Below, one piece after another: positions 6,001 to 12,000 of a stretch of 64,000 nucleotides of DNA (its first letter is position 1; every line of letters starts with the position of its first letter). This DNA is from Escherichia coli (GTDB taxonomy: Bacteria; Pseudomonadota; Gammaproteobacteria; Enterobacterales; Enterobacteriaceae). The stretch lies in assembly GCF_003018115.1 (NCBI RefSeq), contig NZ_CP027457.1. One strand, written 5' to 3'. Made by a program: the position numbers.

Positions 6001-9000
6001 AGCTTGTTGAAGCGAAAACTTAAGGATGAAGGTTATAGCTTTAGTCGGTTGTTGCTGGAGGAGCGAATGCGTGTTGCTGTTAATCTTGTATGTTTCCAGC
6101 GAGAGTCTGGACAAGTGATAGCGGAAAAATGTGGTTACTCAAGTAAGTCCTATTTAATTTCTGTATTTCACCAGTATTATGGTGCACCACCTGAGAGCTA
6201 TGCATATTTGCAGAAAGCAGACGTTATCTGATGTTTTTTCATCAGGCATATATTGATTGACTGTATTAGATATAGTCTGAATGTGTTCAGCATAAAAAGT
6301 TATAATCATTTGGTGTTTGCGTGAATATTGATGAGAAAATCAGATGTAGCCAACTGTTACAGCGTATTGAAGCCGTCAATGTGGAACGAACAAAGGTCTT
6401 CAGTCGTCTGACAGTTTTATTTTGTACCCCTGATCGACGTTCAGGTCAGGAGATGGTTCTTCTGGATGTAGATGCACTTCGGAACGTCTGTGAGGAGTTC
6501 ACCGCGGCTAATTCGGAGTTACTGAGTCTTGTTCAGGAGTACAACAGAATTGCAGGTAGTAACGGTTTTGATGAAATCAAAATTATATCCCGTGGATAAA
6601 ACATATCCTGTATATTTATGTTGTTACATACAGGCGCTTTTAGTATCTGCCGCACGGCAGTTGTACTTCAGAATAAGATGCTTTTGTGACTGGTGGTGTT
6701 GTATCTGGGGTTAGCCAGGAGGCAGGTTCAGAGAGTCCGGTGGTAATTATGTGTATGCAGTGGTTGTTGCTGTACCGTGGGCAAGTTCTGGAACTGGCTT
6801 CGTCCATTGTAGATGATTGTTAGCTGGATATCAGTTACCTCATGGAAATGTTAAATGACTCACAATTCGGTTGATGGACTATTGTCTGAACGATGGAAGT
6901 CTTGTAAAAACGAGCCAGCATAGTGAATCCCCCTGTGCGGAGGGGCGTCTGACATGGTCTCCATAGCGATGGTCACAATACGCAGATTCAGTAGTCAGGC
7001 TGAATCTACCGGGAGGCACCCGGCACTATGCTGCTTATGGTGTATACATAGCGATCGGCCCCTCTCCGGAGGGGCTTTTTTTGTGCGGGAAAAGGCTGTG
7101 TTGTTAAGTGTTAAATTCCTCACAGTTCAGATGGTTGATGCTTGCCTGTCTGAGGGGGAGTTGTTAAAAAAGTTCTGCATGGTGAATCCCCCTGTGCGGA
7201 GGGGCGACTGGTGTGATTTGCATCTTTTCTGTTGTAGGCAATGCAAACGCGGGTTCAGGGACACCAGACTGGACTCACCGGGAGGCACCCGGCACCATGT
7301 TCATGATGATACAGATACGCAGTGTCAGCCCCTCTCCTGAGGGGCTTTTTTATGCAGGAAAAACGCTGTGTTGTGAAATGTTAAATTCCTCACAGTTCAG
7401 ATGGTTGATGCTTGCCTGTCTTACGGGGAGTTGTTAAAAAAGTTCTGCATGGTGAATCCCCCTGAGCGGAGGGGCATATCAGCGCAGGTGTTTCTACTCT
7501 ATCCTTTCTGTGCGGGTTCAGGTGCTGATACTGAACTCACCGGGAGGCACCCGGCATCATGCATATGGTTAACAGACACGTAGCGAAGCCCCTCTCCGGA
7601 GGGGCTTTTTTATGCAGGGAAAAGGCTGTGTTGTGAAATGTTAAATTCCTCACAATTCATGAGGTTGATGATTGTCTGATTGATGAGGAGTTTGTTAAAA
7701 AAAACGGGCATGGTGAATCCCCCTGTGCGGAGGGGTGATATCGTATCATTTCCTGTGTGGCCGACTGATATCACGGACATTTGTTCACCGGGAGGCACCC
7801 GGCACCATGCAGTATACAGAGATTAGGCATACATCCAGGCTCCTCATCGCAGGAGCCTTTTTACATGTAAAAAAAAACCGCTCCTGGGAAGAGCGGTTGG
7901 CAAGGAAGCAAGGAATAAATAACAAAACGTGAAGTAATTTATTCAGCACCCTAATAATACCTTAGAGTAATCACCTTGCGCAACTGTAAGGGCGTATTTC
8001 TTTTTTGCGGGCTGTTTTTCTGTGTGACTTTTGTGTTTCCGGAGGTCAGCCCGTGCCTTCTCTGACTCAGAACATTATCCCGGCCGGGAGGATTCATGGC
8101 ATTTAAACACTACGATGTGGTCAGGGCGGCATCGCCGTCAGACCTTGCTGAACGACTGACACAAAAACTGAAGGAGGGCTGGCAGCCATTTGGCAGTCCG
8201 GTGGCCATCACGCCTTATACCCTGATGCAGGCCATTGCGGCGGAAGGTGATGTCACCACACCTGTGGCGGTGACCGGTAATGAGGGTAAGGCGGTGGCTG
8301 TCAGTGCCACCAGCGACCCGGAGTATTACTTTGTTGTGGTTCTGGCAGGGCAGTCAAATGGCATGTCGTATGGTGAAGGTCTTCCGCTGCCGGAGACATA
8401 TGACCGTCCGGACCCGCGTATTAAGCAGCTGGCGCGTCGCAGTACGGTGACACCGGGCGGTGTCGCCTGTAAATATAACGACATCATTCCGGCGGACCAT
8501 TGTCTGCATGATGTGCAGGACATGAGCCGCCTTAACCATCCGAAAGCGGACCTGTCAAAGGGGCAGTACGGTACCGTGGGGCAGGGGCTGCATATCGCCA
8601 AAAAACTGCTGCCGTTTATACCGGCGAATGCGGGCATTCTGCTGGTTCCGTGCTGTCGTGGTGGTTCAGCGTTCACCACCGGAGCTGATGGCACATACAG
8701 TGACGCTGGCGGTGCCTCGGAGAATTCAACCCGCTGGGGTGTGGACAAGCCGCTGTATAAGGACCTTATCGGTCGAACAAAAGCAGCACTGAAGAAGAAC
8801 CCGAAAAATGTGCTGTTTGCCGTGGTGTGGATGCAGGGGGAATTTGATTTTGGCGGCACGCCCGGAAATCACGCAGCACAGTTTGGTGCGCTGGTTGATA
8901 AATTCCGTGCAGACCTGACGGATATGGCAGGCCAGTGCGTTGGTGGCTCTGCTGGCGGTGTTCCCTGGATATGCGGGGACACGACGTATTTCTGGAAGCA

Positions 9001-12000
9001 GAAGAACGAATCCACGTACCAGACGGTGTACGGCAGCTATAAAAACAAAACGGAAAAGAATATCCATTTCGTACCGTTCATGACGGATGAGAACGGGGTG
9101 AATGTGCCGACGAACAAACCGGAAGAAGACCCGGACATTCCGGGTATCGGGTATTACGGTTCGAAATGGCGTGACAGCTCAGCCACCTGGACGTCACAGG
9201 ACAGGGCGAGCCATTTCAGCACCTGGGCTCGCCGGGGGATTATTTCCGACCGTCTGGCAACGGCGATTCTGGTGCACGCCGGGAGAAGCGCTGAATTCAT
9301 TACCGGAAAACAGCCTGATATGGTGAGGCCCACCGTACCTTCCGGTGAAGGTCCGGAGATAGAGGCGGAAGCCCCGGCCAGTAAGCGTACCCTGATGAGT
9401 CTGCTGGCATCCGGCGAAGACCTGGCATCACAGGGCTGGCGCTATTATCACAAACCGGCGGGCGGAGACAGTGTTAACAAAAACATTGCTGAAGCGGTGG
9501 TCAGTGATGCGGGGGCTACGGGAGGTAAGGCTCTGCAACTGAACAAACCGGAAAATCACATCTGGTTTCTGGAGCATGATGCAGCCGGACAGGGGGCGGA
9601 GTTACTGAAGAAGGGCGGACGTGTGAGCGTACGGTTTAAGTTGCCGGGTTCACTGGTGCCGAATCAGTTTGCCCTGGGCATTTACTGGCTGTTGTCGTCC
9701 CTGCCGGAGGGGGTGACGTTGTCAGGAGAAGGTAACGATATGCTGATGTCCTTCTTTCTGCAGACGGATACGACGAACCTGAACGCGATGCATCACAGGA
9801 AGCCGAATGCGAAGCTGGATACATTCGGGGTCTTTGATAACGGATGGCACACGCTGGCTTTTGAGTTTGCCGGAAACAACAGCATTCAGGTGACACCAGT
9901 ACTGGATGAGAAACGGGGAGCGGCGTTCACACTGGTGAAGTCACCGGCATCGGGGGCGGCGGACAAACTGCAACTGACCGATATATCAAAATCGGCGACG
10001 TATATGCTGCTGATTGACAGCATTGCGGTGGAAGTGAACAGCACAGACACTGCGGCATGATAAAAAAAGCCGCCAGCTACCGGAATGGACTGGCGGTGGT
10101 AATACCCATGGAGAAATATAAAGGAACGATACTTTCGTGCTCTGGTTTTTTAAATGAAAACAGTTCTTATTGTCAACAATAACGGTAAGAAATTATGACT
10201 TTTATTCATCAGGTGATGCTGTACTTCTGTACGGCAGTCTGTGTGCTGTATCTCCTTTCGGGTGGATACCGGGCCATGCGTGACGTCTGGCGCAGACAGA
10301 TTGACAAAAGGGCCGCTGAGAAAATCAGCGCCAGTCAGTCAGCCGGAAGCAAACCCGAAGAGCCGCTCATTTAGCGGCAACTTTCTTAATCACACCTTTC
10401 GACGAGAAAATCCCATGTCAGAAATTACATCCCTGGTCACTGCTGAGGCAGTGAAGGAAGTCCTGCGCTCTGAAGAAGTCCGGAGCGCACTGAAACAGAA
10501 ACTTCGCCATAACCTGGAAGCGCGTCTTGATGCAGAAGTGGATGCCATTCTGGATGAACTGCTGGGCGCACCGGCTGTTCCGGAGCCGGAAGGCATCGCG
10601 GGTGAGGGGAGTGCTTCAGATAGCGGTGACCCCACACCTGACAGCGACATGATGATGTAAGCATGCGTCAGGGAACATCGGTGTGTGCCGGTGGTCTTTT
10701 TTATTGTTGTGAGCTTCCGGATTGCGGGAGACGGGGTATGTACCTGATGGAAAAAATCACAACAGGTGTGTCATACACCACGTCAGCGGTGGGAACGGGC
10801 TACTGGTTCCTGCAGTTGCTGGACAGGGTTTCCCCGTCTCAGTGGGCGGCAATAGGCGTGCTGGGGAGTCTGCTGTTTGGTCTGCTGACGTACCTGACGA
10901 ACCTGTATTTCAAAATCAGAGAGGACCGGCGTAAGGCGGCGCGGGGAGAGTAAGCTGATGAGCAGGAAACTCCGCTATGGTTTATCGGCTGCCGTTCTGG
11001 CGCTGATTGCCGCAGGTGCGCCAGCCCCTGATATTCTCGACCAGTTTCTGGATGAAAAGGAAGGCAACCACACCACGGCATACCGTGATGGTGCGGGTAT
11101 CTGGACCATCTGCCGTGGAGCCACCCGGGTGGATGGTAAGCCTGTTATTCTTGGCATGAAGCTGTCGAAGGGGAAATGCGACCATGTTAACGCCATTGAG
11201 CGTGATAAGGCGCTGGCATGGGTGGAGAAAAACATCAGAGTGCCACTGACTGAACCCCAGAAAGCGGGTATTGCGTCATTCTGTCCGTATAACATTGGCC
11301 CCGGTAAGTGTTTCCCGTCGACGTTTTATAAACGAATTAATGCAGGCGATCGCCGGGGGGCATGCGAGGCGATTCGCTGGTGGATTAAAGACGGTGGCAG
11401 AGACTGCCGTATCCGCTCAAATAACTGTTATGGTCAGGTATCCCGTCGTGACCAGGAGAGCGCGCTGGCGTGCTGGGGTATCGACAGATAAGCAGAATAT
11501 TTTGCTGAAAAATGACGTTGGCCAACGCGGACGGATAACACGAAATCCTGCGAACTGGCAAAACCTAAGTGAATAAAAGTAAAAACCCCGTTTGTTGGCA
11601 GCAAGCGGGGTTTTGTGTTTCTGACCTTGGATAAGGCAAGGGAGAACACGGAAAAGTATAAACGAATTCTGTTGAGGTTGACTATGAAAAACGGCCTTGA
11701 ACTGAAAGCGCCAGTAAGTGATGACATCAGCAGAGCGCTGGCTTTTGCTATTAAGTGGGTGGCGGTTGGTATCGCTGTGTCTCCGATACTGTATGGGCTG
11801 GCAAAACTGGTCATTGCGTTGAAATCGTGAAGGGAGGATTAAACATGTCAGACAAACTCATAATGCTGGCGAAGATCCTCTGTGTAATCGTCGGCATTTC
11901 ATTTTCACTAATGCTGGTTGCTCTTTTTCTTTCCATGGGCTGGATGATGTTATCTTCGTCGGGGCTGCTGGGGTGAGCATAAACCGAATGCTTTCCGCGT

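Follow-up and report, generated by a model that had tools for sequence, protein, structure and literature searches.

We analyzed a stretch of 64,000 nucleotides from the Escherichia coli contig NZ_CP027457.1 (hereafter, the window), in which a nanS-p gene at 8096..10060 (+) encodes an esterase of 654 amino acids (aa). The gene belongs to the late operon of a lambdoid prophage of ~52 kb that is integrated in ompW; it is flanked by the antiterminator gene Q and the tRNA genes on one side and by the holin-lysozyme genes on the other. It is very probably an intact nanS-p allele belonging to the late backbone of a prophage that is apparently complete and devoid of stx, the Shiga toxin operon. In the open reading frame (ORF) call on the window, the gene runs uninterrupted from ATG to stop, with a GGGAGG Shine-Dalgarno sequence 5 nt 5' of the ATG. 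Its product is identical to RefSeq WP_099528372.1, annotated as 'SASA family carbohydrate esterase', and the ORF bounds agree exactly. The RefSeq features referred to here were read from the chromosome of E. coli 07-4299 (NZ_CP027462.1), to which the window corresponds as the reverse strand, with 3 mismatches in 22 kb.

Architecture and catalytic residues of NanS-p

The coding sequence divides into the following predicted domains, with the structural matches taken from a search of all PDB sequences:

8096..8260 (+): nanS-p codons 1-55, DUF1737 domain with loop variant C (…PFGSPVAITPYTLMQAIAAEG); Pfam DUF1737 (PF08410) at aa 3-50, E=9.2e-16
8306..9271 (+): nanS-p codons 71-392, NanS-like SGNH/SASA esterase core with Ser87, Gly189-Gly190, Gln247-Gly248-Glu249 and His373; chromosomal NanS/YjhS (PDB 3PT5) at aa 71-392, E=2.9e-115; Pfam SASA at aa 81-276, E=1.4e-10
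9485..10060 (+): nanS-p codons 464-654 and stop, lectin-like jelly-roll C-terminal domain; crystallised NanS-p C-terminal domain (PDB 6YP6) at aa 464-649, E=1.8e-61; Pfam DUF6645 at aa 504-617, E=1.3e-40

As judged from their scores, the PDB and Pfam matches are far beyond chance. An AlphaFold2 model of the protein, built from a 30-sequence alignment (mean predicted local distance difference test score, pLDDT, of 63.7), is confident only in part of the core and in the C-terminal domain, which it folds as a beta-sandwich (pLDDT ~85-90). The N-terminus (MAFKHYDVVRAASPSD…), judged by eye, is unlike a signal peptide.

The SGNH blocks of NanS in 3PT5 are GQSNA at residues 17-21, RGGSAF at 120-125, MQGEFD at 178-183 and SHFS ending at 303 (PMC10792757). 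Their counterparts in the window protein read GQSNG (85-89), RGGSAF (188-193), MQGEFD (246-251) and SHFS (372-375), and the HMMER alignment places Ser87 on NanS Ser19 and His373 on NanS His301. None of the four catalytic blocks varies among 30 diverse homologues that were aligned. An earlier note on this DNA had assigned the protein to the NanS-p/YjhS type and named missing esterase catalytic residues as the observation that would overturn this view; the four blocks (Ser87, RGGSAF, QGE and His373) are all in place, and the three-domain architecture together with the 3PT5 and 6YP6 matches bears the assignment out. Judging from its sequence, the gene at 8096-10060 is a real and intact allele with the full NanS-p three-domain architecture, and the predicted protein displays every NanS-p hallmark that a sequence can reveal, i.e., the catalytic blocks, DUF1737, the lectin-like C-domain and the position in a lambdoid late region.

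The esterase core is 95% identical to that of gp84 of phage phi24B, from the 933W-type family reported to be active, from which we infer that the window protein would act on Neu5,9Ac2 or on mucin O-acetyl sialic acids. It is barely credible that the ORF, intact as it is, encodes an inactive relic without a working enzyme, as every catalytic block is kept, the ORF is of full length and preceded by a strong Shine-Dalgarno sequence, and the core is 95-99% identical to alleles reported active.

Late region of the ompW prophage and the toxin slot

The prophage bears no detectable stx. Searches of the window with Stx2 A and B by blastn and tblastn, using queries able to detect Stx1 in other loci, returned nothing (best E=0.076), and stx is likewise absent from the left part of the prophage outside the window and from the RefSeq annotation of the whole prophage. 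The stxA-stxB operon by which a Stx-converting phage is recognized, located between the tRNA genes and nanS-p, is not found there. A 'stx2A' label on phage-database matches was dismissed as an artefact of joined alignment pieces spanning the toxin genes, given the negative direct searches. The features of the late region other than nanS-p are as follows:

690..1355 (+): late antiterminator gene Q (Pfam Phage_antiter_Q, E=1.3e-90; RefSeq 'bacteriophage antitermination protein Q')
1363..1391 (+): PR'-like promoter directly 3' of Q, TTGCAA-17-TATATT by promoter scan; a consensus match only, positioned as lambdoid PR', of putative function
2862-3902: DNA methyltransferase gene
3942..4103 (+): two phage tRNA genes, one with a CAT anticodon (annotated Ile, 3942-4017) and Arg-TCG (4027-4103) (ARAGORN, Rfam tRNA, RefSeq)
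4382..4810 (+): gene for a predicted 142-aa lipoprotein with a TolA C-terminal domain, cargo in the stxAB slot (Pfam PF06519, E=7.7e-23)
4917..5129 (+): STnc100-family small RNA (sRNA), an ortholog of the element that adjoins stxB on its 3' side in Stx2 phages (Rfam RF02076, 172 bits)
5278-5393: duplicated 3' fragment of the DNA methyltransferase gene, 87.9% identical to 2803-2918 of the L002 record of phage WGPS2 (RefSeq pseudogene)
5506..6231 (+): gene for a 241-aa AraC-family helix-turn-helix regulator, the second cargo gene (Pfam HTH_18, E=5.7e-12, and HTH_AraC; PHROG 1450)
6889..7868 (+): four tandem STnc100-family sRNA copies at 6889-7084, 7148-7357, 7419-7617 and 7679-7868 (Rfam RF02076, 119-142 bits each)
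10195-10374 (+): DUF1378 ORF (RefSeq, Pfam)
10415-10660 (+): DUF826 ORF (RefSeq, Pfam)
10738-10953 (+): class II holin gene (RefSeq)
10958-11491 (+): lysozyme gene (RefSeq)
11988-12446 (+): gene for an Rz-like spanin, the end of the lysis cassette at 10195..12446 (RefSeq)
14954-16615 (+): large terminase gene (RefSeq)
16679-18616 (+): gene for a 645-aa prohead-protease/major-capsid fusion (RefSeq; Pfam Phage_capsid and Peptidase_S78; PHROG 617 'major head protein')

We found that the late region resembles that of Stx phages on both sides of the place where the toxin would be. Window positions 2360-4124 are 95.7% identical to the Stx2a phage WGPS2; the homology ends at 4124, 21 nt past the second tRNA gene, and resumes at the sRNA just 3' of stxB. 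The intervening stretch, 4125-4887, stands in place of the argO-stxA-stxB segment of WGPS2 (L002, 3182-4627), and argO, the third tRNA gene of Stx phages, is absent from the window prophage. The N-terminus of the TolA-C protein encoded there, MYCRAVPVLVLILASLTTGC, reads by eye as a lipoprotein signal. Within nanS-p, nt 1-1176 are 98.3% identical to WGPS2, and the 3' part of the gene and the lysis genes 79-88%; at the protein level, the core is 98.8% identical to the WGPS2 allele and the C-terminal third only ~59%. In two IMG/VR prophages (L013 and L030), the 654-aa allele recurs over its full length, at 98.0-98.5% aa identity, with stx1 ~800 bp upstream of it. Further along the genome, a 24.8-kb head-tail module aligns over 65-77% of its length, at ~93% identity, with Stx1a, Stx2a and Stx2c long-tailed phages and with stx-negative phages. 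The late regions of the Stx long-tailed phages and of stx-negative siblings (for example, Lys8385Vzw, JLK-2012 and PPyecE_EH1910) are 91-98% identical in patches to that of the window prophage and differ from it in the genes of the toxin slot; no single phage record covers more than 50% of the 12.5-kb late region.

These comparisons confirm much of what the earlier note had said of the prophage, namely that it lacks stx, shares its backbone with Stx phages, and carries different cargo in the slot (the TolA-C-domain lipoprotein gene, the AraC-type regulator and extra sRNA copies). Its placement in the same lineage without the toxin is supported as far as the shared backbone goes, although 'lineage' is a loose word for mosaic lambdoid phages, as the divergent C-terminal third illustrates. 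Its statement that nanS-p lies directly upstream of the lysis genes needs only a small correction: the two small ORFs, DUF1378 and DUF826, intervene before the holin gene. No AgvB, AsxR, PasA-type or other Rfam sRNA was detected between nanS-p and the holin gene at E<=0.1.

The sRNA copies upstream of nanS-p form an array that is unannotated in RefSeq (6889-7868). All five full-length RF02076 matches score 118.8-172.4 bits, above the gathering threshold of the family (47 bits). The copy at 4917-5129 is 89.6% identical to L002 4628-4866 and closes with a terminator-like hairpin at 5099-5118; such a hairpin ends every copy, and when the copies are aligned, the stems and terminators are conserved while the central ~50 nt vary. 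The four tandem copies are ~260-270 nt apart (TRF period 270 nt), the last one ending 227 nt 5' of nanS-p, and the fifth, likewise unannotated in RefSeq, lies 1.76 kb further upstream. A single STnc100 copy is the rule among IMG/VR nanS-p loci (59/64), four or five copies being found in 3/64, and the related Pas sRNA copies were described as distal rather than tandem (Zhu et al.). The 1.86-kb sRNA stretch is covered to at least 80% in 78 of the 5426 complete E. coli genomes and is never annotated there. ORFs called in the unannotated gap at 6232-8095, e.g., 6954-7340 (128 aa), were treated as spurious, as they have no Pfam match and overlap the sRNA array.

Relative to WGPS2, ~3 kb of inserted DNA (5126-8095) separates the first sRNA copy from nanS-p, opening with the methyltransferase fragment, after which comes the AraC-family regulator gene. 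The insert has the appearance of part of another lambdoid late region that was joined in at the repeated sRNA element, a pattern that points to the sRNA copies as anchors for recombination. A second small predicted lipoprotein, annotated as 'TonB family protein', is encoded downstream of the lysis genes at 13039-13365. Like the TolA-C protein at 4382-4810, it comprises only the C-terminal domain of an envelope energiser, and both have Cys-containing lipobox-like N-termini; any decoy role of the two towards colicins or superinfecting phages is purely speculative.

In complete E. coli genomes, nanS-p is far more widespread than the toxin. We recorded 3026 nanS-p matches in 1185 of the 5426 genomes (median 2, maximum 8 per genome), against 739 stx2 matches in 598 genomes and 359 stx1 matches in 348. 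With 1098 stx operons in all, the ratio is ~3 to 1, so that at least ~64% of the nanS-p matches cannot adjoin a toxin operon. Among 64 IMG/VR loci for which 3 kb or more of upstream DNA is available, stx is missing from 36, one of them being phi24B, in which stx was replaced experimentally. An STnc100-like element, by comparison, is found 170-580 nt 5' of nanS-p in 62/64 loci, and all four head-module types and every variant of the N-terminal domain include both stx-positive and stx-negative members. The literature offers the same picture: seven nanS-p alleles of EDL933 and five of O104:H4, all active esterases, are encoded in prophages (PMC8065619), and a unit made up of genes for a sialic-acid esterase, a holin and a lysozyme and flanked by PasD/STnc100 and PasA/PasC sRNAs occurs mostly without a nearby stx (Zhu et al.).

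Since nanS-p outnumbers stx in this way, nanS-p is a backbone gene and stx a sporadic addition. The constant unit is the sRNA with nanS-p, and the slot upstream of it is a swap site, filled by stx1, stx2 or other genes depending on the phage. From the presence of nanS-p, therefore, nothing can be concluded on whether a prophage carries or once carried the toxin. The word 'retained', which the earlier note had used of the esterase, is a matter of framing: it implies a loss of stx, and a gene ~3 times as common as the toxin is better taken for backbone, with stx as an occasional insert. A derivation of this prophage from a Stx phage by replacement of argO-stxAB, with nanS-p literally retained, is in our judgment unlikely. 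The homology breakpoints do flank the stx cassette, the window allele adjoins stx1 in L013 and L030, and repeated loss of stx is one option considered by Zhu et al. Against this stand the numerical excess of nanS-p, the stx-negative members known for every head type and N-variant, and a slot filled by intact alternative genes with no stx remnant; moreover, two-way comparisons cannot give the direction of change. A nanS-p gene in a toxin-free prophage is, in turn, ordinary and already published, and the exact protein is already in RefSeq. As originally stated, the finding thus adds one more allele of a textbook-level feature of enterohemorrhagic E. coli (EHEC)-type lambdoid prophages; what changes is the framing, with the sRNA and nanS-p as the constant part of the late region and stx as an interchangeable insert upstream.

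As for the remainder of the prophage, the integrase gene adjoins an intact ompW, and a 126-bp 3' fragment of ompW at 38814-38939 marks the duplication of the attachment site. The gene set comprises integrase, excisionase, replication genes, Q, lysis, terminase, capsid, portal and tail genes to J, Lom and the tail fibre, and the prophage appears complete. Between a tail assembly gene that ends at 30010 and the tail-tip gene J, two genes that are normally adjacent, lie ~860 bp (30011-30868) with no ORF longer than 50 aa and no RefSeq annotation; no Rfam family was matched there at the gathering score. At the right prophage end, 38404-38589 (-) holds a C4 antisense RNA (61.6 bits) and an isrK-family sRNA (60.4 bits), both beside a frameshifted ORF6N antirepressor-like gene, and the ompW 3' fragment adjoins.

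Inferred expression and enzyme release, and a possible DUF1737-capsid connection

Upon prophage induction, nanS-p would be transcribed within the Q-antiterminated late transcript, a step taken from lambdoid biology. As each of the upstream sRNA copies ends in a terminator-like hairpin, transcription of nanS-p from PR' would need Q antitermination. The published ranking of z1466, a nanS-p gene, among the genes with the strongest norfloxacin induction (PMC8065619) agrees with Q-dependent late expression. The protein would then be released by phage lysis and would strip 9-O-acetyl groups from Neu5,9Ac2 on mucin glycans, allowing E. coli to catabolise the sialic acid. Induction, release by lysis and de-O-acetylation are modeled on published near-identical alleles (95% core identity), and NanS was most active on 9-O-acetyl Neu5Ac (PMC9487903). 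A different target, i.e., O-acetylated glycans of the bacterial surface (O-antigen or capsule), whose modification would aid receptor access during adsorption, was raised as an open possibility in PMC8065619, and the SGNH region gives a weak PHROG match to a 'tail protein' family (E=5e-4). We regard it as very unlikely: the phi24B protein is found on the capsid and not on the tail, the core shares ~70% identity with NanS, a Neu5,9Ac2 esterase, and published alleles de-O-acetylate mucin sialic acids (PMC8065619).

Recent work has given the nanS-p of phi24B a structural role as well. In this phage, gp84 (= NanS-p) is an abundant virion protein, whose DUF1737 domains form hexamers in the capsid hexon pores, anchored by the loop residue Tyr42; the remainder of gp84 is shed from the virion by slow self-processing, and binding is confined to the flat central hexons of the T=9 shell (bioRxiv 10.64898/2026.04.10.717836). 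Our sequence search of PDB found no phi24B capsid/DUF1737 chain. Our comparative data come from 190 unique IMG/VR nanS-p loci, a sample de-replicated at exact identity only and dominated by related prophages from E. coli that produce Shiga toxin (STEC). In this set, the core with the esterase activity sites is conserved to 95-100%, and the first 30 aa hardly vary. For aa 31-50, the loop, there are three variants (A, B and C), each with a Tyr at positions 39-42; the window protein is of variant C, with Tyr41.

The coupling of these variants to the phage head was examined in the 57 loci with an identifiable head module, with terminase type as a proxy for capsid type; three 'head' clusters that consisted of a transposase, an integrase and a tape-measure protein were dropped. 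Variant A occurs only with phi24B-type heads (6/6) and variant B with a second head type in 23/25 loci, while variant C, that of the window, is accompanied by the window-type head in 12 loci, by lambda-like heads in 13 and by the second type in one. Over the 57 loci, N-variant and head type are strongly associated (Cramer's V 0.93, adjusted mutual information, AMI, 0.68), in contrast to the variant of the C-terminal domain (V 0.34, AMI 0.12). The C-terminal domain, which separates the N-domain from the head genes and is thus physically nearer to the latter, is nevertheless poorly coupled to them; this comparison of sequences argues against simple physical linkage and in favor of a functional link of DUF1737 with the capsid. 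A strict one-to-one match of N-variant and head type was rejected, as two head modules are found with variant C and 3 of the 57 loci are exceptions.

By analogy with phi24B, DUF1737 would anchor the window protein to capsid hexons, and the enzyme would ride on the virion, to be shed later by self-processing; we consider the chances of this for the window NanS-p to be nearly balanced, perhaps a little below even. The broader proposal, that nanS-p is a virion gene in long-tailed lambdoid phages too, with a loop variant matched to the head module (A to phi24B-type heads, B to the second type, C to lambda-like and protease-capsid-fusion heads) while core and lectin domain reassort, is put forward tentatively, as somewhat more doubtful than not.

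Several points weigh against capsid carriage. The window loop variant is found with two terminase/portal modules (12 window-type, 13 lambda-like), and the association of N-variant with head type could reflect shared descent of closely related STEC prophages. No sequence similarity is detectable between the window capsid protein and the phi24B capsid-gene candidate, TTP and TVP stand in the window NanS-p where gp84 has its proposed 'SSP' self-cleavage motifs, and the AlphaFold2 model of the DUF1737 domain (pLDDT 40-53) is too poor to judge its fold. Capsid binding itself is established only for a podovirus with a T=9 capsid (bioRxiv 10.64898/2026.04.10.717836), and the functional claims made for the window allele derive wholly from homology.

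Some of the same observations would fit a NanS-p that acts as an enzyme only, a moron product released by lysis as a public good for the lysogen population, with a DUF1737 that does not bind virions in a long-tailed phage with a different capsid. This is the classical view in the literature (PMC8065619), and the lack of similarity between the capsid proteins, the pairing of the window N-variant with two different head modules, and a window capsid that may not offer the flat central hexons of a T=9 shell are all in its favor. What it leaves hard to explain is why, if there is no capsid partner, the N-variant should follow head type so tightly in a gene whose other parts reassort; the first 30 aa and the loop Tyr are, besides, kept in all variants. 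We hold it to be a real possibility, if a rather doubtful one.

Should NanS-p indeed decorate capsids, many stx-negative E. coli prophages would give rise to virions that carry the esterase as a decoration able to modify mucus, which would account for the persistence of the gene wherever there is no toxin. The gene is a three-part mosaic, whose crossover points could be the first 30 codons, which hardly vary, and the conserved catalytic core. The tracking of head type by the N-variant provides independent comparative support for the 2026 cryo-electron microscopy preprint and suggests that virion-borne mucin esterases are widespread.

Comparison with known systems

Chromosomal NanS (YjhS, 3PT5) belongs to the same SGNH/SASA fold family as the window protein and shares its catalytic Ser-His, the two aligning over 322 residues. 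It is, however, a single-domain protein of ~330 aa, without DUF1737 and the C-terminal lectin domain, and is part of the nan regulon instead of a phage late operon.

Closest to the window NanS-p are the products of 933W z1466/L0105 and phi24B vb_24B_21 (= gp84), which have the same DUF1737 - esterase - lectin-like architecture and catalytic blocks identical to those of the window NanS-p. Their genes likewise lie between Q with the tRNA genes and the holin gene, with an STnc100-like sRNA upstream. A difference is that no stxAB lies upstream of the window gene. Outside the core, identity to phi24B gp84 drops to 63.6% in residues 1-55, 33-37% in the linkers and 59.7% in the C-domain. The DUF1737 domains are nearly identical in their first 30 aa and divergent in the loop at aa 31-50, where the window protein is 3 aa shorter. 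The phages themselves differ as well: the window prophage encodes a long lambda-type tail and an unrelated head module, while phi24B is a podovirus.

Non-Stx prophages of EHEC O157:H7 EDL933 and of O104:H4 resemble the window prophage in carrying functional nanS-p genes in a lambdoid setting, most of them being toxin-free (PMC8065619; PMC10462455). They differ from it in that they reside in other strains, and the allele described here is the one of 654 aa.

A purely functional analogy, taken from the phi24B preprint, is that with Hoc of phage T4, a surface-exposed capsid accessory protein with a glycan-interacting module. Hoc and NanS-p are unrelated in fold and family, and NanS-p is an enzyme that forms hexamers in phi24B.

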